A DNA stretch of 38,284 nt from a virus, in the UHGV virus genome UHGV-0085204. The stretch is one strand, 5' to 3'. The translations under genes and the position numbers were made by a program. Shown here piece by piece: positions 4,008 through 15,016 of this stretch. The notes under the pieces are model-generated. The model saw nothing but the letters and a program-made list of their open reading frames with translations. It was not told where the DNA came from and made no database searches. Positions within the stretch are counted from its first letter, which is position 1. Each line of letters starts with the position of its first letter.

Positions 4008-4105
4008 CTTTCATTAATCCCTGAATTGTTGGTTAATACGCTTGAGGGTGAATGCGAATAATAAAAAAGGAGCCTGTAGCTCCCTGATGATTTTGCTTTT
4101 CATGT

Positions 4106-4387
4106 TCACCGTTCCTTAAAGACGCCGTTTAACATACCGATTGCCAGACTTAAGTGAGTCGGTGTGAATCCCATCAGCGTTACCGTTTCGCGGTGCTTCT
4201 TCAGTACGCTACGGCAAATGTCATCGACGTTTTTATCCGGAAACTGCTGTCTGGCTTTTTTGATTTCAGAATTAGCCTGACGGGCAATACTGCGAAGGGC
4301 GTTTTCTTGCTGAGGTGTCATTGAACAAGTCCCATGTCGGCAAGCATAAGCACACAGAATATGAAGCCCGCTGCCAGAAAAATGCAT
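4106..4387 (-). CDS. Hypothetical protein (lambda orf61 position); start uncertain, may be the internal ATG at 4321
   Basis: ORF in the exo-distal small-gene cluster; no clear RBS. Confidence 0.35.
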   Translation of the reverse strand: MHFSGSGLHILCAYACRHGTCSMTPQQENALRSIARQANSEIKKARQQFPDKNVDDICRSVLKKHRETVTLMGFTPTHLSLAIGMLNGVFKER

Positions 4388-4750: not shown

Positions 4751-5421
4751 TGCTCCCCAAATACAAAACCAATTTCAGCCAGTGCCTCGTCCATTTTTTC
4801 GATGAACTCCGGCACCATCTCGTCAAAACTCGCCATGTACTTTTCATCCCGCTCAACCACGACATAATGCAGGCCTTCACGCTTCATACGCGGGTCATAG
4901 TTGGCAAAGTACCAGGCATCTTTTCGCGTCACCCACATGCTGTACTGCACCTGGGCCATGTAAGCCGATTTTATGGCCTCGAAACCACCGAGCCGGAACT
5001 TCATGAAATCGCGGGAGGTAAACGGGCATTTCAGTTCAAGGCCGTTGCCGTCACTGCATAAACCATCGGGAGAGCAGGCGGTGCGCATACTTTCGTCGCG
5101 ATAGATGATCGGGGATTCAGTAACATTCACGCCGGAAGTGAATTCAAACAGGGTTCTGGCGTCGTTCTCGTACTGTTTTCCCCAGGCCAGCGCCTTGGCA
5201 TTAACTTCCGGAGCCACACCGGTGCAAACCTCGGCAAGCAGGGTGTGGAAGTAGGACATTTTCATATCAGGCCATTTCTTTCCGGATCGGGGTTTTGCTA
5301 TTACGTTATGAACTTCTGAAGCTGTGATGACGCCGAGCCGTAATTTGTGCCACGCATCATCCCCCTGTTCGACAGCTCTCACATCGATCCCGGTACGCTG
5401 CAGGATAATGTCCGGTGTCAT
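4741..5421 (-). CDS. exo: Lambda exonuclease (Red alpha)
   Basis: 226 aa; near-identical to my memory of lambda Exo ([40 protein letters not shown]...). Confidence 0.97.
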
Positions 5422-6203
5422 GCAGCCACCTTCTGCTCAGAGGCTTTCTGTTTCAGGAATCCAAGAGCTTTCACTGCTTCGGCCTGTGTCAGTTCTGACG
5501 ATGCGCGAATGTCGCGGCGAAATATCTGGGAACAGAGCGGCAATAAGTCGTCATCCCATGTTTTGTCCAGGGCAATCAGCAGAGTGTTAATCTCCTGCAT
5601 GGTTTCATCGTTAACCGGAGTAATGTCGCGTTCCGGCTGACATTCTGCGGTGTATGCGGTATTTTCGACAATGCGCTCGGCTTCATCCTTGTCATAGATA
5701 CCAGCAAATCCGAAGGCCAGACGGGCACACTGAATCATGGCTTTATGCCGTAACATCCGTTTGGGATGCGACTGCCACGGGCCGGTGATTTCTCTGCCTT
5801 CGCGGGTTTTGAATGGTTCGCGGCGGCATTCATCCATCCACTCGGTAACGCAGATCGGATGATTACGGTCTTTGCGGTAAATCCGGCATGTACAGGATTC
5901 ATTGTCCTGCTCAAAGTCCATGCCATCAAACTGCTGGTTTTCATTGATGATGCGGGACCAGCCATCAACGCCCACCACCGGAACGATGCCGTTCTGCTTA
6001 TCAGGGAAGGCGTAAATTTCTTTCGTCCACGGATTAAGGCCGTACTGGTTGGCGACGATCAGCAATGCGATGAACTGCGCATCGCTGGCATCACCTTTAA
6101 ATGCCGTCTGGCGAAGAGTGGTGATCAGTTCCTGTGGGTCGACAGAATCCATGCCGACACGTTCAGCTAGCTTCCCAGCCAGCGTTGCGAGTGCTGTACT
6201 CAT
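5418..6203 (-). CDS. bet: Lambda Bet (Red beta) single-strand annealing protein
   Basis: 261 aa; matches lambda Bet length and sequence ([26 protein letters not shown]...). Confidence 0.97.
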
Positions 6204-6208
6204 CCGTT

Positions 6209-6505
6209 TTATACCTCTGAATCAATATCAACCTGGTGGTGAGCAATGGTTTCAACCATGTACCGGATGTGTTCTGCCATGCGCTCCTGAAACTCAACAT
6301 CGTCATCAAACGCACGGGTAATGGCTTTTTTGCTGGCCCCGTGGCGTTGCAAATGATCGATGCATAGCGATTCAAACAGGTGCTGGGGCAGGCCTTTTTC
6401 CATGTCTTCTGCCAGTTCTGCCTCTTTCTCTTCACGGGCGATCTGCTGGTAGTGACGCGCCCAGCTCTGAGCCTCAAGACGATCCTGAATGTAATAAGCG
6501 CTCAT
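6209..6505 (-). CDS. gam: Gam host-nuclease (RecBCD) inhibitor, short form
   Basis: 98 aa; matches C-terminal 98 residues of lambda Gam ([18 protein letters not shown]...[10 protein letters not shown]). Confidence 0.9.
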
Positions 6506-6581: not shown

Positions 6582-6872
6582 TTAGTGATTCAGGCCGTTA
6601 CCGCGTCCGTCGAGAAAAACTTCCACGAGCAAATCACGGGTATAAGTGCGCTCGATGCCGCGATGCAGATAAAGCCGTCCGCGTAAATTAGCTGATGCAG
6701 TCCAGGTACCATCTTTGTGTTTGACCAGCATTCCTGGCATGACCGCGCCGCGATTAACGGTCTGCGTTCCGTAATGTTGATGAACCATAAAAACTCCTGC
6801 CCGTAAGCTGGGCTGCTGAACATATAGAGACTTCTGCGCGTATTCAGGCGGTGGATGGCCGCCGGTTGTCAT
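6582..6872 (-). CDS. Hypothetical protein at the kil/cIII position (start taken at internal ATG MTTGGH)
   Basis: ORF-track start at 6992 is a TTG; internal ATG at 6872 has a GAGG RBS; position downstream of gam in the leftward operon. Confidence 0.4.
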   Translation of the reverse strand: MTTGGHPPPEYAQKSLYVQQPSLRAGVFMVHQHYGTQTVNRGAVMPGMLVKHKDGTWTASANLRGRLYLHRGIERTYTRDLLVEVFLDGRGNGLNH

Positions 6873-7039
6873 AACTAAGCCGCCTCGTTGAAGCGACTGA
6901 GGTATAAAGTGTTGTGTTGATTTCAGCTGGTCACACCGACGTTCACGCGTCCGCTTCACCCCTCGCACTCCCCGGAGCCTGCTGAAATTCAAGCTGCGGA
7001 TCTAAGCGGTCATCGCAACGGTGAATCAGGTGGTTGCCG

Positions 7040-7130
7040 TATCGTTGTGTTGTTGCGATATGGTGATAATAGCTATTGCTATTGGTGATATCAATACTTA
7101 TTGCTATTGGCTGATGTGTTTTGATATTAA
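7040..7130. promoter_or_regulatory. OL/PL-like operator cluster: repeated TTGCTATTGG motif and AATAGCTATT palindrome
   Basis: Motif copies at about 7072-7085 and 7101-7110; the same motif recurs between the repressor and cro genes. Confidence 0.4.
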
Positions 7131-7235
7131 ATGTTTGATAGCAAAAAGAATTAATTTTGTGACTTGCATCGCATAGCGATAACTGAAGCAGTAGTGTGGT
7201 GGTTTTTTGAGCGGTGTGTGATGAGGGGAGGGGAC

Positions 7236-7264
7236 AAAAGAAAACCCGGCACGGTGGCCGGGTT
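7236..7264 (-). terminator. Rho-independent terminator after the cargo operon (CCCGGC..GCCGGG stem, T-run on minus strand)
   Basis: Plus AAAACCCGGCACGGTGGCCGGGTT; minus-strand reading gives stem plus TTTTCTTTT. Confidence 0.55.
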
Positions 7265-7288
7265 ATTAATTAAATTAGTCAGTTTTTT

Positions 7289-8095
7289 CTACTGTAACAT
7301 AGAGGCAGCATTCAGCATCTTTTCGTAATATGAACGCATGTCTTCTTTGCTATATGCGTTGATAAGATTATCAGCGTGTTTTTCCAGTAGATTTAGCTGC
7401 TGTTTTGCTGACTTTTCTTGTGCTGTCGTTTCAGCGGCAAAAATTACAAATGAATCAATATTTGAATTGTATAATTCGTAGGCTTTAGTAATTGTTAAAA
7501 CACTTATCGCAGCTTCACCCATTTGTTTTTTTATATTTTCAGAACGAAAATCTAATGTTTCTGTAAGATGGTATTTGCCATTTTTTAACAAAAAATCTGC
7601 AACTAACCCTTCTTCATTACTAATTGGATAATTAGCTACGATTTTATGTTGGGAAAGATCTTCAAAATACTTACTGAAAATTCCATGTTGTATAAAGGTG
7701 GATTTTAATTCAGAAAAAACCTTTTTTTTCAACTGCTTATGTGGTTGTTTTTGTGGGTTTACTAACCGATTCATTAGATCAGTAACTTTAGCTTCGTAAT
7801 CTTCGTTGGCTTGAAGAGTGAACATGCCAAATGACGATAACGATAATGCTCCCTTAAAAAGACAAGGAAGAAGTTCAGCATTGTTGATTTTTTGTGACAA
7901 ATCAAAAAGCGAGGTTGAAAGATCCTCTAAGTAATCTAAGGTAAGATCTTTGTCAATCGCTTTAAGTTTTGAAACTGAATTGAGCATACGTACGTCTATG
8001 TCAGAGTCATGGTAAACGATCAAACCAACGTTAATCGTTTCACCTTTCTCTAAGTTCGGTGTAACTCTGATTAAGCTGTATTTGAAAGTTTTCAA
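7289..8095 (-). CDS. DUF3037-like protein (assignment from memory); second gene of cargo operon; TTG start overlapping upstream stop
   Basis: 268 aa; N-terminal YSLIRVTPNLEKGETINVGLIV resembles the conserved DUF3037 N-terminus; GGAGA RBS 7 nt before the TTG; AT-rich by eye. Confidence 0.55.
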   Translation of the reverse strand: MKTFKYSLIRVTPNLEKGETINVGLIVYHDSDIDVRMLNSVSKLKAIDKDLTLDYLEDLSTSLFDLSQKINNAELLPCLFKGALSLSSFGMFTLQANEDYEAKVTDLMNRLVNPQKQPHKQLKKKVFSELKSTFIQHGIFSKYFEDLSQHKIVANYPISNEEGLVADFLLKNGKYHLTETLDFRSENIKKQMGEAAISVLTITKAYELYNSNIDSFVIFAAETTAQEKSAKQQLNLLEKHADNLINAYSKEDMRSYYEKMLNAASMLQ

Positions 8096-8940
8096 GATGT
8101 TATCTCCAGTCTTATGGCATTTAGCCTATCGATTCGCTCCTCGCTATCCCACCACTTCAAAAAATACTCCTTATGCATTGGTGGCATCCATGCTTCAGGC
8201 ATAGAGTTAAGTATATCAGATATAGTCTCAACTCCAATTTTTTCAATTTTGTCAAGGACAGATAATGCGCACTTTCTCAGATCATCAGTGTCGCCAATGA
8301 ATTGTTTAGCAATCGTCCAGTTTGTTGTTGTACTGGAGTCTGTTGGTAGTATATGAGGGGTATTTCGTGGCCAGCCTATAACAAAAGAGTTTAGACTAAA
8401 ATCGAATGTTTTAACTATAACATTGCCTCGGGTGTTTTCCATGTATAAGTAGTTGTTGAGGTGTCTGTCAATGTTATATACAAACTGATCAAATGCATAA
8501 ATTGCCCAGAGTTGCTTCTTTAAGGATTCAGAAGCATTTGAGAGCAAATTTATCCATTGAGGACTATTGAGACCAGATTTCCAGGCTGAAAACTCTATGC
8601 GAGAGCCAAAAACATACTCCCCATTAGCAATACACTTGAGAATTTTGCACACAGGTGTAGCGATGCCGCATTTTTCAGCTAAATTTGTGCAAAACCATTC
8701 CGCTGCCGGTACTTGAGTTGGGTTTTGTACAGGAAAAGGTGGGGTGGAACGCATGCTTTTAACTGCATATTCCATTTCATCAGTGGCAATAGCGAAACCA
8801 GAAAGGTGTGCAGTGCCTAAGCTTGAAGGTGTATATTCATGAAATTCTAATTCAAACAAACTTCCTTGCTCTGGTTTCACTTCATCAGTGTTTGGCTCTT
8901 GTTCTTTCGTCATCAACTTTTTTCCCCAAATCGAAGACAT
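8092..8940 (-). CDS. HipA-C-like / protein-kinase-like fold protein (short, lacks HipA N-terminal domains)
   Basis: 282 aa; catalytic-loop-like NIDRHLNNYLY (DxHxxN) followed about 20 residues later by TFDFS (DFG-like); AGAGG RBS; 46 bp downstream of repressor stop. Confidence 0.55.
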   Translation of the reverse strand: MSSIWGKKLMTKEQEPNTDEVKPEQGSLFELEFHEYTPSSLGTAHLSGFAIATDEMEYAVKSMRSTPPFPVQNPTQVPAAEWFCTNLAEKCGIATPVCKILKCIANGEYVFGSRIEFSAWKSGLNSPQWINLLSNASESLKKQLWAIYAFDQFVYNIDRHLNNYLYMENTRGNVIVKTFDFSLNSFVIGWPRNTPHILPTDSSTTTNWTIAKQFIGDTDDLRKCALSVLDKIEKIGVETISDILNSMPEAWMPPMHKEYFLKWWDSEERIDRLNAIRLEITS

Positions 8941-8986: not shown

Positions 8987-9679
8987 CTACCCATGCTTCC
9001 TATACGTCTGCGGCATGCTCCCAATAACCTTACCGAAGATGAACACCCGGTTCATCTCGTCTTTCTCGATCGGGTCCCACGGTGAGTAGCTCTTGTTATC
9101 AGAGATAACCAGCAGCTTATCCTTCATCATTTGCAGACGCTTTACATGGGCTGTGTCGTCGTACAGAAACGCATAGATACCATCACCGTCGAAAGATTTA
9201 ACCGTGATATCAACGAACAGCAGATCACCTGGTTCGATCGTTCCTGACATGCTGTCACCACGCACGTTAATGATGCGGATATTTTCCGCCTTCCTGCCAT
9301 CGAACATGTGACGAGCATCGTCAAACGAGTACTCAACCGAGCGTAGAACTTCTACAAACTCACGGTTGATTACACCCGGCCCGGCACTGACTTCTATATC
9401 AAGAACGTCAATTTTGAAGTATTTGGAATGGCTGACAGCAGGCTTCCCTGATTGTTGACCGTCATTTCTCATCGGGCCTATGCCTGATGAGAGCCATTCT
9501 GTTCGAACACCCAATGCATTAGCTATTTCAACAATTTTTGTTGAGCCGCGCGCGTTGCCGCTTGTCAGTCTCCAGATTGTGGGTTGAGCTACGCCAGACG
9601 CCTTTGCAAGAGCGCCTTGAGACATTCCAGATTGTTCCATCGCTAGGTTTAAGCGATCAGCAAGAGTTTCTTTTTTCAT
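8987..9679 (-). CDS. CI/LexA-like prophage repressor (N-terminal HTH, C-terminal S24 peptidase)
   Basis: 230 aa from ATG at 9679; HTH segment MSQGALAKASGVAQPTIWRL; S24 signature GDSMSGT and downstream lysine (VKRL); ORF-track start at 9715 is a TTG. Confidence 0.9.
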   Translation of the reverse strand: MKKETLADRLNLAMEQSGMSQGALAKASGVAQPTIWRLTSGNARGSTKIVEIANALGVRTEWLSSGIGPMRNDGQQSGKPAVSHSKYFKIDVLDIEVSAGPGVINREFVEVLRSVEYSFDDARHMFDGRKAENIRIINVRGDSMSGTIEPGDLLFVDITVKSFDGDGIYAFLYDDTAHVKRLQMMKDKLLVISDNKSYSPWDPIEKDEMNRVFIFGKVIGSMPQTYRKHG

Positions 9680-9715
9680 AAGTTTTAATTTATACGCTTG
9701 CGTATTGATGGTCAA

Positions 9716-9789
9716 AACACGTTTTGCTATTGCTTGGGTTAATACGCATTGCTATTATTCATTCATTGCAATACCAATAGGAATTGATA
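9716..9789. promoter_or_regulatory. OR-like divergent promoter/operator region between repressor and cro
   Basis: Repeats TTGCTATTGC (9724-9733), CATTGCTATT (9748-9757) and palindromic ATTGCAAT..CCAATAGG (9764-9781). Confidence 0.5.
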
Positions 9790-10017
9790 ATGACAAATCA
9801 AACCATTCAACTCGCAATCAGTATTACAGGTAGTCAAAAACGACTGGCAGATCTATGCGGTGTAGCCCAACCCACAGTTTGGCGTTGGCTACACGGTGGC
9901 GGAATTGATGCCCGCTATGTAATGAAAATTGTCTCAGCCACTGGTGGAAAGATTAAACCAGCAGATATTCGTCCCGACCTCGCACCATTGTTTAACGCGA
10001 GTAATTCTGCCGCCTAA
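9790..10017 (+). CDS. Cro-like HTH regulator
   Basis: 75 aa from ATG at 9790; HTH LADLCGVAQPTVWRWL; divergent from the repressor. Confidence 0.7.
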   Translation: MTNQTIQLAISITGSQKRLADLCGVAQPTVWRWLHGGGIDARYVMKIVSATGGKIKPADIRPDLAPLFNASNSAA

Positions 10018-10041: not shown

Positions 10042-10587
10042 ATGACTATGCAACCACTTACATACCAACAGACTAGCGGATTTAGCCCGACTGCGGTGAT
10101 AAATCGTTCTCAAACAAAACAGGCGCCAGGCCACGAAAAAATCCGTGATGCCGTTCGCGCCTGGTCGGCTGCAGATAATCAGGATGTTGTTGCCGCACTC
10201 ATTGTGAATGAGTATCGGGAGCAGGGCGGCGGCACCATCGATTTCCCTGATGATGTCAGTCGTGCACGCCAGAAGCTGTTCCGCTTCCTCGATAACAAAT
10301 TCGATTCTGAAAAATACCGAAATAACGTGCGTGAACTGACCCCGGCAATTCTGGCGGTACTACCGCTGGAATATCGCGGCCACCTGGTTGAGCAGGATAG
10401 CTACATGGCTCGGCTGGCTGAAATGGAAAAGGAACTCAGTGAGGCAAAACAGGCTGTCATTCTCAACGCACCACGCCACCAGAAACTGAAGGAGATGAGT
10501 GAAGGCATTGTGTCGATGTTTCGTGTGGACCCGGATCTGGCTGGTCCACTGATGGCGATGGTCACCACCATGCTGGGGGCAATATGA
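10042..10587 (+). CDS. CII-position regulatory protein (YdaT-like, from memory)
   Basis: 181 aa between cro and O; no lambda CII similarity, assignment is positional. Confidence 0.4.
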   Translation: MTMQPLTYQQTSGFSPTAVINRSQTKQAPGHEKIRDAVRAWSAADNQDVVAALIVNEYREQGGGTIDFPDDVSRARQKLFRFLDNKFDSEKYRNNVRELTPAILAVLPLEYRGHLVEQDSYMARLAEMEKELSEAKQAVILNAPRHQKLKEMSEGIVSMFRVDPDLAGPLMAMVTTMLGAI

Positions 10588-10673
10588 CAGGTTCGGAAAT
10601 GGCGAAAGCCGGTCTGCGCGAACAGAACCGACTTTCAGGTGCAAATCGTAACACACTCATTGCGGGAGGAATT

Positions 10674-11603
10674 ATGGCAAACACTGCTGAGATATTCAAT
10701 TTTCCAGTGCCGGATGCGGCACAAAAGGAGCCGCGCGTGGCAGATCTCGATGATGGTTATACGCGCATTGCAAATGAGTTGCTGGAAGCTGTGATGCTGG
10801 CCGGATTAACACAGCACCAGCTTCTGGTCTTCCTGGCTGTCATGCGCAAAACATATGGCTTTAATAAAAAACTGGATTGGGTGAGCAACGAGCAACTTTC
10901 CGAGTTGACCGGGATATTGCCGCACAAGTGTTCTGCTGCAAAAAGTGTTCTGGTAAAGCGTGGGATTTTTATTCAGAGCGGGCGGAATATCGGCATTAAT
11001 AATGTGGTCAGTGAATGGTCAACATTACCCGAATCAGGTAAGAAAAATAAAGTTTACCTGAAAGAGGTAAATTTACCTGAATCAGGTAAGAAAAGTTTAC
11101 CCAAATCAGGTAAAGGCACTTACCCGAATCAGGTAAACACAAAAGACAAACTAACAAAAGACAATATAAAACCTTTTTCGTCCGAGAATTCTGGCGAATC
11201 CTCTGACCAGCCAGAAAACGACTTTCCTGTGGAGAAACGGGATGCTGCAATTCAGAGCGGCAGCAAGTGGGGGACAGCAGAAGACCTGACCGCCGCAGAG
11301 TGGATGTTTGACATGGTGAAGACCATCGCGCCCTCAGCCAGAAAACCGAATTTTGCAGGGTGGGCTAACGATATCCGCCTGATGCGTGAACGTGACGGAC
11401 GTAACCACCGCGACATGTGCGTGCTGTTCCGCTGGGCATGCCAGGACAACTTCTGGTCAGGTAACGTGCTGAGTCCGGCCAAACTCCGCGACAAGTGGAC
11501 CCAACTCGAAATCAACCGTAACAAGCAACAGGCTGGCGTGACAGCCGGAAAATCAAAACTCGACCTGACAAACACTGACTGGATTTACGGGGTGGATTTA
11601 TGA
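10674..11603 (+). CDS. O: Replication initiator O (lambda O-like)
   Basis: ATG at 10674 with GGAGG RBS; N-terminus ADLDDGYTRIANELLEA close to lambda O; iterons inside the gene. Confidence 0.9.
   Translation: MANTAEIFNFPVPDAAQKEPRVADLDDGYTRIANELLEAVMLAGLTQHQLLVFLAVMRKTYGFNKKLDWVSNEQLSELTGILPHKCSAAKSVLVKRGIFIQSGRNIGINNVVSEWSTLPESGKKNKVYLKEVNLPESGKKSLPKSGKGTYPNQVNTKDKLTKDNIKPFSSENSGESSDQPENDFPVEKRDAAIQSGSKWGTAEDLTAAEWMFDMVKTIAPSARKPNFAGWANDIRLMRERDGRNHRDMCVLFRWACQDNFWSGNVLSPAKLRDKWTQLEINRNKQQAGVTAGKSKLDLTNTDWIYGVDL
11023..11140 (+). repeat. Replication origin iterons (four copies of about 18 bp CCNRAATCAGGTAAR) inside the O gene
   Basis: Direct repeats read at 11026-11042, 11083-11099, 11101-11116, 11121-11137, followed by A-rich segment ACAAAAGACAAACTAACAAAAGACAATATAAAACC. 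Confidence 0.75.
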
Positions 11604-12301
11604 AAAACATCGCCGCACAGATGGTTAACTTTGACCGTGAGCAGATGCGCCGGATCGCCAACAACATGCCGGAACAGTACGACGAAAAGCCGCAGGTACA
11701 GCAGGTAGCGCAGATCATCAACGGTGTGTTCAGCCAGTTACTGGCAACTTTCCCGGCGAGCCTGGCTAACCGTGACCAGAATGAACTGAACGAAATCCGC
11801 CGCCAGTGGGTTCTGGCTTTCCGGGAAAACGGGATCACCACAATGGAACAGGTTAACGCAGGAATGCGCGTAGCCCGTCGGCAGAATCGACCATTCCTGC
11901 CATCACCCGGGCAGTTTGTCGCCTGGTGCCGGGAAGAAGCATCCGTTAACGCCGGGCTGCCAAACGCCAGCGAGCTGGTTGATATGGTTTACGAGTATTG
12001 CCGGAAGCGTGGCCTTTATCCGGATGCAGAGTCTTATCCATGGAAATCAAACGCGCATTACTGGTTGGTTACCAACCTGTATCAGAACATGCGGGCCAAT
12101 GCGCTGACTGATGCGGAATTACGGCGCAAGGCTGCCGATGAACTGACTTGTATGACCGCGCGAATTAATCGTGGTGAGGCGATACCTGAACCAGTAAAAC
12201 AACTTCCTGTCATGGGCGGTAGACCACTTAACCGGGCTCAGGCTCTGGCGAAGATCGCAGAAATCAAAGCTAAGTTCGGACTGAAAGGAGCCAGTGTATG
12301 A
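11600..12301 (+). CDS. P: Replication protein P (DnaB loader)
   Basis: 233 aa, near-identical to my memory of lambda P (MKNIAAQMVNFDREQMRRIANNMPEQYDEKPQ...). Confidence 0.97.
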   Translation: MKNIAAQMVNFDREQMRRIANNMPEQYDEKPQVQQVAQIINGVFSQLLATFPASLANRDQNELNEIRRQWVLAFRENGITTMEQVNAGMRVARRQNRPFLPSPGQFVAWCREEASVNAGLPNASELVDMVYEYCRKRGLYPDAESYPWKSNAHYWLVTNLYQNMRANALTDAELRRKAADELTCMTARINRGEAIPEPVKQLPVMGGRPLNRAQALAKIAEIKAKFGLKGASV

Positions 12302-13643: not shown

Positions 13644-13892
13644 ATGTCGAAGCGGAATATTGCCGCTAAAACACAAGAAGAGCGCGAGAAGGTTAACGTT
13701 GACCTTGCTGTCTCCTGAGTTACCTACAAAGAGCACCTTAATATACCGGTTATTGCCGAAGCGGTGATGCGTGAGCAGCCTGAGCATTTGCGGGACTATT
13801 TTTTGGAGCGGCCACGACATTACCGCGAGCAGAGCATCGCGCTGCCCAAGGCATCCGCTCCTCGACATCTTAAGCAGGAAGGTGAAAAATGA
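13644..13892 (+). pseudogene. Small ORF interrupted by an in-frame TGA (13716-13718); downstream part ends in ATGA overlap with the next gene
   Basis: ATG 13644 ...AVS TGA VTYKEH...MREQPEHL...QEGEK stop at 13890-13892; same frame throughout. Confidence 0.3.
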
Positions 13893-14371
13893 TAAGTGCA
13901 GAAGGACTGCAGCGGTTACTTAATTTATCGGAGCCTCCATCTGATGAACTGATTGATGTTTATCTTCAATTCTGCATGATTTTTCCTAGGGTCGAGCAAA
14001 GTTTTTTTGGTGGCTTTGCTAAGGGGGAAGACAGTTTAAATTATGCGCGAACGTTACTTGACGCCGGGATAAAGGTGCCCAACGAACTTTTTCACGATTT
14101 TAAGCAGAGATACATTTTGAATGGGGATGCGCAGGAAAGACTTGACGCCCTCTGTGTCGGTCGAGAGAGAGATAGGCGGGGAATAGTTAATGGACTTCAA
14201 AATGACGCAGCAACAGATCTAAACACCATGTCTACAGTATTAAAGATAGTTATAAGGATAAGAAATAACCTTTTCCACGGAAATAAAGACGCTTATCTTT
14301 TTGTTGATTCTCAAGAGCAAGCGCAACTATTGAGGTGGTGCGTGAGATTTCTCCAAGGATTATTAAATTAA
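13889..14371 (+). CDS. HEPN-like hypothetical protein (cargo)
   Basis: 160 aa; RBS GGAAGGTG; C-terminal IRIRNNLFHGN contains an R-x4-H (HEPN-type) motif; AT-rich by eye. Confidence 0.45.
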   Translation: MISAEGLQRLLNLSEPPSDELIDVYLQFCMIFPRVEQSFFGGFAKGEDSLNYARTLLDAGIKVPNELFHDFKQRYILNGDAQERLDALCVGRERDRRGIVNGLQNDAATDLNTMSTVLKIVIRIRNNLFHGNKDAYLFVDSQEQAQLLRWCVRFLQGLLN

Positions 14372-14560
14372 TCTACCTTTGATTTTCCATAATCAACCAG
14401 CAATAATAATGTCACCGGAGCCTGAACAACATCGGTGACTTCTGCGCTAAACGGGGACGTTTATGCGCACATACAATCCAAACTCTCTTCTCCCTTCACA
14501 GATGCAGAGATGCACCTGCGATTTTTTGCATCCAGCGTTTGACCTCTGCGGAGGTGAAGC

Positions 14561-15016
14561 GTGAACCTCCCACAAGACGGCATCAAATTGCATCGTGGTA
14601 ACTTCACCGCTATCGGCCAGCAGATCCAGCCTTATCTGGAGGAAGGCAAATGCTTTCGCATGGTGCTTAAACCGTGGCGTGAGAAACGCAGTCTTTCCCA
14701 GAATGCACTCAGCCACATGTGGTACAGCGAAATCAGTGAATACCTCATCAGCAGGGGTAAAACGTTCGCCACTCCAGCTTGGGTAAAAGATGCTCTCAAA
14801 CACACATATCTCGGTTATGAAACCAAAGACCTGGTTGATGTCGTAACCGGTGAGATCACCACTATCCAGTCGTTACGCCATACCTCCGATCTTGATACCG
14901 GAGAGATGTATATCTTCCTGTGTAAGGTTGAAGCCTGGGCGGTGAATATTGGCTGCCACCTGACTATTCCGCAGAGCTGCGAGTTCCAGCTGCTCCGCGA
15001 CAAGCAGGAGGCGTAA
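14561..15016 (+). CDS. NinB-family protein (DLP12 YbcN-like)
   Basis: 151 aa; GTG start with GGAGG RBS; [16 protein letters not shown] motif; position at start of nin region. Confidence 0.7.

Follow-up and report, generated by a model that had tools for sequence, protein, structure and literature searches.

The region spanning the divergent cI-like and cro-like genes of UHGV virus genome UHGV-0085204 very probably constitutes the lysis/lysogeny switch of a lambdoid prophage, with a repressor of ST104/SE1-type specificity and operators arranged according to the OR/OL design of lambda. As switches go it is an ordinary case of a familiar design, one that conceptually confirms the lambda paradigm without extending it, and its sole mildly unexpected element is a fourth operator-like site located over the cro ribosome-binding site. 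The window analyzed is the whole stretch of 38,284 nucleotides, within which the following genes and associated elements surround the region:

8987..9679, minus strand: cI-type prophage repressor, 230 aa (Pfam PF01381, HTH_3, and PF00717, Peptidase_S24)
9790..10017, plus strand: cro-type gene, 75 aa, YdaS family (Pfam PF15943)
10042..10587, plus strand: YdaT-family protein in the cII position (Pfam PF06254, E = 2.4e-29)
7243..8940, minus strand: cargo co-oriented with cI (Pfam and terminator scan)
8092-8940, minus strand: HipA-like kinase within the cargo (Pfam)
7289-8095, minus strand: DUF3037 protein within the cargo (Pfam)
7264..7243, minus strand: intrinsic terminator of the cargo (terminator scan)

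The first-pass annotation had assumed that cI-like and cro-like genes flank a 110-bp divergent region, and both parts of this assumption hold, the genes according to Pfam and the gap (9680-9789) by measurement. Together, an HTH+S24 repressor, a Cro-type HTH gene and a gap of this size form the divergent arrangement of a lambdoid CI/Cro immunity region. The N-terminal domain of the repressor is a 434-like helix-turn-helix with the recognition helix GVAQPTIWR, and its closest solved structure is the 434 repressor (E ~2e-5, residues 7-66); the same sequence search of solved structures gave no match between the present repressor and lambda CI. The C-terminal S24 autopeptidase domain contains Ala99-Gly100 within SAGPG (residue 98), GDSM at 141 (Ser143) and HVKRL at 178 (Lys180), and both the cleavage site and the Ser/Lys dyad are invariant across homologues, motifs from which autocleavage is predicted. 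The cI start is the same ATG that RefSeq annotates in a relative. The Cro helix, GVAQPTVWR, is nearly that of cI, and the shared GVAQPT(I/V)WR is recovered when the cI N-terminal domain is compared with Cro by BLASTP (E = 4e-9). In databases the exact cI and Cro sequences carry generic names, XRE/HTH regulator and YdaS. The protein downstream belongs to the family of YdaT, the functional CII equivalent in CP-933P (PMC9986795). Among relatives, the content of the cargo slot between cI and OL is variable. Rfam, searched at gathering thresholds, gave no match anywhere in the window.

The predicted binding unit is a 16-bp dyad, AATASS-N4-SSTATT, of which the 10-bp repeat TTGCTATTG is the right half; the proposal that the 10-bp direct repeat itself is the unit is not borne out. 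Every string cited in the first-pass annotation was nonetheless recovered in place or within a few bases, specifically TTGCTATTGC at 9724-9733, CATTGCTATT at 9747-9756, ATTGCAAT at 9765-9772 and CCAATAGG at 9774-9781, and the motif described on the far side of the cargo operon was found as TTGCTATTGG at 7076-7085 and 7101-7110. Within the 38 kb window, TTGCTATTG occurs in 3 copies, all of them in the OR or OL regions, versus 0.61 expected, a count reached by 1 of 100 shuffles. The 16-bp pattern AATASSNNNNSSTATT, allowing at most one mismatch, has 7 matches versus 0.74 expected (0/100 shuffles reached 7), and six of these lie inside OR or OL. The seventh (743-758) was set aside, as it falls inside an integrase-like ORF and about one chance match is expected. 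When up to two mismatches are allowed the enrichment disappears (18 matches versus 12.4 expected), and the signal is thus confined to near-consensus copies.

In the divergent region, the operator-like sites and the promoters that they overlap are as follows:

9691..9706: OR3, TATACGCTTGCGTATT, whose 14-bp core is perfectly palindromic, between the PRM -35 and -10
9716..9731: OR2, AACACGTTTTGCTATT, with a weak left half, abutting the PRM -35 and overlapping the PR -35 by 2 bp
9741..9756: OR1, AATACGCATTGCTATT, full consensus, overlapping the PR spacer and extended -10
9770..9785: fourth operator-like site, 'OR4', AATACCAATAGGAATT, left half consensus, right half with one change (a one-mismatch match)
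9687..9715, minus strand: PRM-like promoter, -35 TTGACC (9715..9710), 17-nt spacer, -10 TAAATT (9692..9687)
9730..9758, plus strand: PR-like promoter, weak -35 TTGCTT (9730-9735), 17-nt spacer to TATTAT, extended -10 TGcTATTAT (9750-9758)

Three dyad operators, OR3, OR2 and OR1 (starting at 9691, 9716 and 9741), therefore sit on the promoter hexamers of PR and PRM, with centers spaced 25/25 bp. OR3, identical in sequence in 17/20 relatives, lies between the PRM -35 and -10, such that its occupancy should shut off cI transcription; since it is also the most symmetric site, the order of CI affinities is unreadable from sequence. Among 20 loci OR2 varies solely at its tenth, central base in 19, and differs more widely in L104, the most distant relative. 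The predicted PR start lies near A9765, as read from the sequence, and TTGCTATTAT is invariant in 20/21 relatives. PR is absent from the promoter consensus scan because its -35 matches at just 3/6 positions. That scan, which produced 5 promoter-like matches versus 7.7 expected in 3.7 kb and carries no statistical weight alone, was used only together with conservation of the hexamers.

A second cluster lies about 2.6 kb from OR, beyond the cargo operon, and comprises:

7066..7094, minus strand: PL-like promoter, TTGATA (7094..7089), 17-nt spacer, TATTAT (7071..7066); promoter scan, 10/12 matches
7068..7083: OL1, AATAGCTATTGCTATT, full consensus, overlapping the PL -10 by 4 bp and so mirroring OR1 at PR
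7093..7108: OL2, AATACTTATTGCTATT, 25 bp from OL1, overlapping the PL -35 by 2 bp
7113..7128: degenerate OL3, GATGTGTTTTGATATT, 4/12 specified positions off, 20 bp from OL2
7137..7152: lone CI-type half-site, (G)ATAGC then GAATT, kept in relatives

OL1 and OL2 (at 7068 and 7093) are thus placed on a leftward promoter whose -10 is kept in relatives, with the degenerate OL3 following at 7113, and a full-consensus OL3 occupies the equivalent position in many relatives (OL alignment, site table). The suggestion that two operator clusters bracket the cargo operon as in lambda is well supported, with OL lying here over TTGATA-17-TATTAT and being present in essentially every relative, whatever cargo separates it from cI. 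In the case of the lone half-site, the adjacent GAATT(T)ATTTT is also present in a heterologous-immunity phage, and for this reason only the half-site is considered immunity-specific; a 'site 4 class' uniting this OL-side element with OR4 by means of GAATT was rejected, GAATT(T)ATTTT being a common flank. Folding of the PL leader (7060-6900, minus strand) in search of an HK022 put-like antiterminator RNA gave a structure no better than shuffles (z = -0.5).

Conservation in about 20 enterobacterial species gives this reading good support. Measured from the cI ATG, the offsets of the dyad sites are +12, +37 and +62 in phages of Klebsiella and Salmonella and likewise in 19 genomes from other species. 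Compared with the window, the operator bases of 18 relatives belonging to other species show 97.8% identity, versus 49.9% for cI third-codon positions and 50.3% for the OR spacers. In 80 viral contigs with an identical repressor (636 kb), 457 of 464 operator matches fall in OR or in the OL pair, and the cI-to-OL distance in these contigs takes at least 28 length classes. One reading of the repeats is that they are chance reiterations of A+T-rich hexamers (TATTGC/TATTGG) without function, as might be entertained given a short pattern in an A+T-rich region and the absence of enrichment at two mismatches (18 versus 12.4 expected). However, no shuffle in 100 reaches the count observed at one mismatch or fewer, operators retain 98% identity across 18 species versus 50% at neutral positions, and fixed spacing is maintained with the same OL pair beside at least 28 different cargo lengths; this reading is effectively refuted by the conservation data.

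A domain-swap relative, L005, provides a further control. Its C-terminal domain is identical to that of the present cI and its HTH is different, and its operators, ACAACC-N2-GGTTGT, are set in the same layout, spaced 24/23/31 bp in OR and with an OL pair 24 bp apart. Flanks are identical between L005 and the window while the 16-bp sites change with the repressor/Cro HTH. This co-variation, and the recognition helix shared by the two proteins, lend indirect support to the prediction that CI and Cro bind the OR/OL operators and confer immunity. It could instead be argued that the repeats are bound mainly by the cII-like YdaT or by a host nucleoid protein (IHF, Fis), with the CI sites elsewhere. 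A YdaT-type inverted repeat is indeed present at 9784-9801, at the cro start, with 1 mismatch to the CP-933P consensus, and, read on the minus strand, the OL-proximal sequence at 7131-7143 agrees with the IHF core WATCARNNNNTTR. Yet relatives do not keep the YdaT-like match, several of them also lack the IHF-like one, and sites that change with the HTH between identical flanks are not what is expected of host-factor sites. The sites moreover overlap the -10 and -35 hexamers of PR, PL and PRM in the manner of CI/Cro operators, and binding mainly by such factors is regarded as very improbable. Taken together, enrichment and clustering, fixed offsets in about 20 enterobacterial species and the domain-swap control substantiate the earlier proposal that the divergent region contains repressor operators.

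The cI mRNA made from PRM is likely leaderless, because 7 nt separate the end of TTGACC-17-TAAATT from the ATG and a Shine-Dalgarno sequence is missing there in every relative. These 7 nt run up to the A of the cI ATG (9679), the predicted transcription start; GGTCAA and AATTTATA are kept in 19-21 of 21 relatives, and the 7-9 nt preceding the ATG vary in sequence and are constant in length. The first-pass annotation had pointed to a TATAAA about 9 nt upstream of the ATG, which is present (minus strand 9694..9689, 9 nt before the ATG at 9679..9677); TAAATT, with a 17-bp spacer to TTGACC compared to 15 bp for TATAAA, is nevertheless the better -10. The claim that the ATG has no Shine-Dalgarno sequence was upheld, as anti-SD pairing amounts to -0.1 to -0.4 kcal/mol in 16/16 sequences tested, versus -4.2 to -5.8 kcal/mol for cro in the same comparison. 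A start without a Shine-Dalgarno sequence next to a -10 is the combination that marks leaderless repressor mRNAs. Counting onward from TAAATT as the -10, base 8 is the A of the ATG, which puts it 1 nt past the modal start, and a 1-nt leader on the cI mRNA is equally possible. Leaderless repressor transcripts have been demonstrated by 5' RACE for paaR2 of CP-933P (PMC8630535) and for cI of PY54 (PMC4488713), and earlier work cited in both reports describes the lambda cI mRNA as leaderless.

It is also conceivable, if unlikely, that the operators are real and the cI mRNA is not leaderless, starting further upstream either at another OR promoter or solely at a YdaT-dependent establishment promoter, with translation from the ATG despite the lack of a Shine-Dalgarno sequence or from the in-frame TTG at 9715 annotated for phage PhiR30_1. 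The ORF is open from this TTG (242 aa), a start used in one GenBank record and some 242-aa database entries, and a PRE-type transcript of cI, if one exists, would carry a leader. Against this, the TTG coincides with the start of the conserved -35 hexamer and likewise has no Shine-Dalgarno sequence, the loss of 1 nt from the stretch separating -10 and ATG in L100 creates, as read from its sequence, an in-frame TAA stop upstream of the ATG, and the 230-aa ATG start is that of RefSeq and most database members. In addition, the heterologous-immunity homologue has its start at the corresponding MKT, 6 nt downstream of a -10-like TACATT, and the conserved -10/-35 pair is held at a fixed distance from the cI ATG. 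A leaderless cI mRNA from PRM is therefore the preferred reading. Given a PRM -35 near consensus, activation of PRM by OR2-bound repressor may be unnecessary or absent. The OR2 center lies at -44.5 from the predicted PRM start; in lambda, OR2 lies near -42.

The fourth site, OR4, spans approximately +6 to +21 of PR and contains the cro Shine-Dalgarno sequence AGGAA (9779-9783). Across species and within E. coli, AATAC and AGGAATTG are kept while the central 4 bp vary, and an analogous site covers the cro Shine-Dalgarno sequence in the heterologous-immunity phage L005. Of the additional elements proposed by the first-pass annotation, CCAATAGG forms part of this conserved half-consensus site, whereas conservation of ATTGCAAT stops at the E. 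coli lineage. Such a site appears to be common to the present switch and to the IdasGreatGrand-type immunity group, and possibly to IR4 of CP-933P. That OR4 is a working operator, an extra lock on cro common to YdaS-type switches of unrelated specificity, is proposed tentatively, at somewhat less than an even chance. It might act as a transcriptional roadblock or by promoter occlusion at high repressor or Cro levels. If this reading is true, then together with the near-consensus PRM -35 it would describe a circuit less dependent upon OR2 activation, and with more added repression, than that of lambda.

By analogy with lambda, 434 and CP-933P, the switch may be proposed to work as follows. In the lysogen, repressor dimers would fill OR1/OR2 and OL1/OL2 cooperatively, an occupancy that would silence PR and PL; repressor at OR2 would probably stimulate PRM, and at high levels repressor would also fill OR3 and so limit its own synthesis. 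The PRM-made cI mRNA would most likely start on the A of the AUG or one nucleotide ahead of it, and so be leaderless. Cro, with a recognition helix almost identical to that of cI, would occupy these sites too, probably with a preference for OR3, whose symmetry is perfect, and would thereby turn off cI. Occupancy of OR4 over the cro ribosome-binding site would probably add to the repression of PR and cro, and RecA-stimulated self-cleavage of the repressor at Ala99-Gly100 would lead to prophage induction.

The ST104/SE1-like immunity type is very common: 719 of the 5,426 complete E. coli genomes carry it, as do 508 IMG/VR contigs, and it extends to Salmonella P22-like phages and a Klebsiella phage. 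The region is found with 100% identity in E. coli strains such as A11. In a published classification the ST104 type stands as a separate specificity class on which no experiments had been done (PMC2629481). No experimental study of the type was found in the literature; a full-text search for the operator strings returned unrelated primer matches only, and a search for ST104/immC operators returned only the classification of 'ST104' as an unstudied specificity type. The operators of this immunity type seem never to have been defined before. The value of their definition is of a practical, not a conceptual, kind: homo- and hetero-immunity groups become predictable from the 16-bp operator and the way its copies are laid out, the operator clusters delimit the cargo (defence-gene) slot between cI and OL, which varies greatly, and the OR/OL sites offer ready targets for footprinting, reporter constructs and the engineering of orthogonal lambda-like switches.

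Comparison with lambda reveals several similarities. Both systems have divergent cI and cro genes, three dyad operators over back-to-back promoters, a repressor with a self-cleaving S24 C-terminal domain, a repressor start without a Shine-Dalgarno sequence right behind a -10, and a second three-site cluster at PL, here about 2.6 kb away beyond cargo genes cotranscribed with cI, which occupy the position of lambda rexAB. The predicted PR and PRM starts are 86 bp apart, compared to 82 bp in lambda, and operator centers are 25/25 bp apart in OR (lambda 24/23) and 25/20 bp apart in OL (lambda 24/20). Despite these similarities, the operator sequence is unrelated (the best OR match to the lambda consensus has 7/17 mismatches) and the sites are 16 bp rather than 17 bp. 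Cro is here YdaS-type and a YdaT protein holds the cII position, the PRM -35 is near consensus where lambda PRM is weak, PR has an extended -10, OL3 is degenerate, and the extra site over the cro ribosome-binding site is absent from lambda.

Prophage CP-933P of E. coli O157:H7 likewise combines a YdaS-type Cro, a YdaT-type CII and a divergent gap of about 100 bp (PMC8630535, PMC9986795), with an OL/PL cluster on the far side of a cargo operon that shares a transcript with the repressor, and its OR consists of four repeats, two with only one good half-site (PMC8630535, PMC9986795). It differs in its repressor, PaaR2, of about 15 kDa with His tag (PMC8630535) versus the 230-aa HTH+S24 protein here, in its GTTTAGTAA-type operator consensus, to which the best match here has 3/9 mismatches, and in its cargo, a toxin-antitoxin pair. 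With 434 the present system shares a 14-bp operator core with conserved outer 4-bp arms and a variable center, along with similar CI/Cro recognition helices; the arms, however, are ATAC...GTAT versus ACAA...TTGT, and the best OR match has 2/8 specified positions wrong. For P22, the best OR match has 8 mismatches to the 18-base pattern ATTTAAGANATCTTAAAT (one N), and this is the weakest of the four comparisons. The OR sites, in sum, fit the operator consensus of none of imm-lambda, imm-434, imm-P22 and CP-933P.

The closest correspondence is with the Salmonella P22-like phages ST104, SE1 and ST160 (immC) and the Klebsiella phage ST11-VIM1phi8.2, which differ in cargo (ParA-like, DUF3024) and, in the ST104/SE1 group, in having P22-like rather than lambda-like backbones, with a fourth site that in SE1 is more degenerate than here. 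These phages, which are expected to be homo-immune with the present one, share the repressor N-terminal domain (86-88% identity), the same OR3/OR2/OR1 sequences and offsets and the same OL pair, so that the DNA-binding domain and operators are those of the ST104/SE1-type specificity. In SE1 the N-terminal domain is 88% and the whole repressor 86% identical to that of the window, OR3 and OR2 are identical, and OR1 differs by 1 base. Villafane et al. used at least 92% whole-protein identity to predict the same specificity (PMC2629481). Because the whole repressor, at 86%, falls below that threshold, it is from the operators only that homo-immunity of the present phage with SE1/ST104 is predicted.

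In the window, a lambdoid prophage or phage, the switch genes are arranged around a 110-bp gap from which the repressor (cI) and Cro-type (cro) genes diverge, with a YdaT-family protein encoded next after cro, in the cII position. The cI-HipA-like kinase-DUF3037 gene order mirrors the cI-rexA-rexB order of lambda.

Genes and features of the immunity region and its surroundings
5418-6505, lambda-like bet and gam, read from translations and annotated Bet and Gam in relatives
7264..7243, good intrinsic terminator after the DUF3037 gene
7289-8095, same strand as the repressor and downstream of it, DUF3037 gene
8092-8940, same strand as the repressor and downstream of it, HipA-like kinase gene
8987-9679, leftward, repressor (cI) gene, 230 aa, HTH_3 and Peptidase_S24
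9680-9789, cI/cro gap, 110 bp
9790-10017, rightward, Cro-type gene, 75 aa, YdaS/Cro-type HTH
10584-12301, O/P-like replication genes, from translations and relatives

The first-pass annotation had proposed operator repeats both in this gap (OR) and beyond the cargo genes (OL), and the strings it quoted are all present, at most a few bases from where it placed them. The 38 kb contain three copies of TTGCTATTG (7076, 7101, 9724) where 0.61 would be expected, and a repeat finder returned 18-mers 25 bp apart at 7068 and 7093 as well as 18-mers 50 bp apart in OR (9689-9706 and 9739-9756). Since the repeats, when put in register, give a 16-bp dyad, AATASS-N4-SSTATT, the 10-mer originally proposed covers just the right half of this dyad; its repetition and clustering in both regions are real.

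Operator sites
7068-7083, OL1, AATAGCTATTGCTATT
7093-7108, OL2, AATACTTATTGCTATT
9691-9706, OR3, TATACGCTTGCGTATT
9716-9731, OR2, AACACGTTTTGCTATT
9741-9756, OR1, AATACGCATTGCTATT

Allowing at most one mismatch, the dyad has seven matches in the window versus 0.74 expected, a number reached by 0 of 100 shuffles; six lie within OR or OL and the seventh inside an integrase-like ORF. The enrichment is gone at two mismatches.

A natural control is provided by the phages IdasGreatGrand and PhiR5_1, whose repressors have a C-terminal domain identical to that of the window but a different HTH domain, as well as a different Cro. Their OR contains no AATASS sites and instead carries ACAACC-N2-GGTTGT sites spaced 24 and 23 bp, with a fourth 31 bp further, and their OL has a site pair 24 bp apart within flanking DNA shared with the window. 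Because the repeats differ with the HTH domain while the OL flanks do not, the repeats follow the DNA-binding domain, as expected of operators. The comparison with these phages (1660-1760 and 4056-4165 of the IdasGreatGrand locus) shows a clean modular exchange of HTH domain and operators between immunity types, with breakpoints visible at ...GTTGTTGCGAT and ATTTTGTGACTTGC.... Within each immunity type the recognition helix is common to both proteins (GVAQPTIWR in cI and GVAQPTVWR in Cro of the window; VSQ(A/Q)A(I/V) in both proteins of the IdasGreatGrand type), which argues that cI and Cro would read the same sites.

Conservation among relatives points in the same direction. Near-identical OL and cI-OR-cro segments surround different cargo in the E. 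coli phages PhiR30_1, PhiR68_2, 4A7, Lambda_4C10, D2, 1W, 3W and Perceval, and the region is found in 719 of 5,426 complete E. coli genomes. At a lower identity of about 76-77%, the repressor gene and OR recur in Klebsiella phage ST11-VIM1phi8.2 and in the Salmonella P22-like phages SE1, ST160 and ST104. Scanning genomes with the N-terminal domain as query added another 19 loci from other species, whose proteins are 66-95% identical to that query (85-95% for 18 of the loci), in genera including Kluyvera, Citrobacter, Enterobacter, Yokenella, Pluralibacter, Raoultella, Scandinavium, Huaxiibacter and Pantoea. In nearly all distant relatives the OR sites stand at +12/+37/+62 from the cI ATG; the second cluster is found 0.9-3.3 kb past cI and has a spacing of 25 bp and then usually 20 bp, and matches elsewhere in the 8-kb loci are almost absent. 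Aligned OR sequences resolve into four invariant blocks, AATTTATACGCTTGCGTATT, TGGTCAAAACACGTTTnGCTATTGC, AATACgCATTGCTATTAT and AATACt-N4-AGGAATTG, between which the spacers are free to vary. Mean identity to the window across 18 species is 97.8% over the 48 operator bases, 49.9% at cI third-codon positions and 50.3% at OR spacer positions. Sequences particular to single sites are also kept across species, namely the palindromic core of OR3, the weak left half of OR2 (AACACG) and the consensus form of OR1 and OL1. Among 80 IMG/VR contigs with an identical repressor (636 kb), 457 of 464 operator matches fall in OR or the OL pair.

Predicted promoters, named after those of lambda
9715..9687, minus strand, PRM (cI), TTGACC-17-TAAATT from the promoter scan, -10 hexamer 7 nt before the cI ATG
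7094..7066, minus strand, PL (leftward), TTGATA-17-TATTAT from the promoter scan
9730-9735 and 9750-9758, rightward toward cro, PR, -35 TTGCTT and invariant extended -10 TGcTATTAT

The scan missed PR, the -35 of which matches at only 3/6 positions, and was not significant by itself (5 matches versus 7.7 expected); support for these predicted promoters is hexamer conservation, not the scan. Transcription from PR is predicted to begin near A9765, which puts 86 bp between it and the start predicted for PRM. OR1 and OL1 overlap the -10 elements of PR and PL, respectively, by 4 bp, and OR2 and OL2 overlap the corresponding -35 elements by 2 bp; OR2 additionally adjoins the PRM -35, and OR3 occupies the PRM spacer and touches its -10. 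Operator spacing and promoter overlaps are close to those of lambda, whose values served for the comparison. A 12-bp near-palindrome, AAAAC-AC-GTTTT (9713-9724), covers the weak left half of OR2 together with the PRM -35. Among the relatives it hardly varies, differing only in the most distant one and by one base in one other (L100), and its conservation may reflect constraints beyond OR2 itself.

Sites, conservation, swap control and promoters come from sequence and comparison, and lambda, 434 and CP-933P are the models from which each mechanistic step is inferred. Dimers of the repressor on OR1/OR2 and OL1/OL2 would silence PR and PL, repressor at OR2 would possibly help PRM, and OR3 would serve autoregulation and likely be the first target of Cro. 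Ala99-Gly100, Ser143 and Lys180 predict RecA-dependent induction, and the cargo operon would be expressed together with cI from the prophage.

The suggestion of a leaderless cI transcript also bears on PRM. As had been noted, the start of cI lacks a Shine-Dalgarno (SD) sequence: duplexes with the anti-SD have energies of -0.1 to -0.4 kcal/mol in 16 of 16 sequences, compared with -4.2 to -5.8 kcal/mol for cro. The TATAAA proposed as -10 is present but leaves a 15-bp spacer to the -35, and TAAATT, with 17 bp, fits better. The A of the ATG is the eighth base after TAAATT, making a start at that A or 1 nt upstream plausible; the -10-to-ATG length is constant among species whose bases there differ, apart from a 1-nt deletion in one relative. 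Leaderless expression of cI is judged likely. By 5' RACE the mRNAs of CP-933P paaR2 (PMC8630535) and PY54 cI (PMC4488713) are leaderless, a property for which the two papers also cite lambda cI. The deposited cI of PhiR30_1 (PV340558.1, 3357-4085) is given a TTG start codon 36 nt ahead of the ATG, and 242-aa versions also occur in protein databases; this is probably a start-codon mis-annotation. The in-frame TTG falls at 9715, where the conserved PRM -35 hexamer begins, L100 has an in-frame stop between it and the ATG, and RefSeq uses the ATG.

ATTGCAAT (9765-9772), earlier listed as an element, shows no conservation beyond the E. coli lineage, and CCAATAGG lies inside a one-mismatch operator match.

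Fourth operator-like site
9770-9785, one-mismatch operator match, AATACCAATAGGAATT

Here the left arm and the AGGAATTG part, which contains the cro SD, are kept, and the central 4 bp vary between species and within E. coli. A half-consensus site over the cro SD also occurs in the heterologous-immunity phage, and the CP-933P OR has four repeats, two with only one good half-site (PMC8630535). A weak fourth operator is the best reading, at about even confidence, with cro SD conservation adding to the signal. OL3 (7113-7128) is degenerate in this phage, and many relatives have a consensus OL3 there. To its right lies a conserved lone half-site, (G)ATAGC (7137-7142); the adjacent GAATT(T)ATTTT also occurs in a phage of different immunity, and TATCAAACATTTA (minus strand, within 7131-7152) fits the IHF core consensus, a fit lost in several relatives. 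The CP-933P YdaT inverted repeat, TTGATTN6AATCAA, occurs with one mismatch over the cro start codon (9784-9801), where it is not conserved in relatives. A perfect copy (14379-14396) lies between ORF 13889-14371 and ORF 14561-15016, the latter taken as ninB-like by position and sequence, and could be a real YdaT target.

The claim that a second cluster brackets the cargo as in lambda was borne out by the OL pair over the predicted PL and by the slot between cI stop codon and OL, which is variable in relatives: among the 80 contigs, cI-to-OL1 distance takes at least 28 values from 1392 to 2715 bp. The slot holds the HipA-like kinase and DUF3037 protein in the window (7289-8940, minus strand), and a SIR2 protein in an O157:H7 strain with an identical repressor. 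SE1 and a Klebsiella phage have ParA-like proteins there, and the genes of PhiR phages in this place are annotated as HipA/HipD or GevT/GevA. The slot resembles a hot spot for swapping genes that are probably defence-related and are expressed along with the repressor. In E. coli O157:H7 NE 1092-2, cro (YdaS) is annotated as frameshifted (6151-6373 of its locus) with repressor and operators intact, suggesting that this prophage is locked in lysogeny. Between PL and the kil-like gene (6582-7060, minus strand) no gene for an N-type antiterminator was recognised, and the PL leader folds no better than shuffled sequence. The first long ORF after PL (6992..6582) has no Pfam match; an arginine-rich stretch, KRTRERR, lies close to its N-terminus.

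With respect to known systems, the DNA-binding domain has 434 repressor as its closest relative of solved structure, and the consensus sequences of lambda, 434, P22 and CP-933P operators all fail to match the sites found here. The predicted operator specificity is that of SE1/ST104, and PMC2629481 treats 'ST104' as a repressor type of its own, without experimental study. A literature string search found no paper with these operator sequences, and the source names of the proteins are generic. From these comparisons, the switch as read from sequence is a well-supported lambda-type one, conceptually ordinary and uncharacterised.
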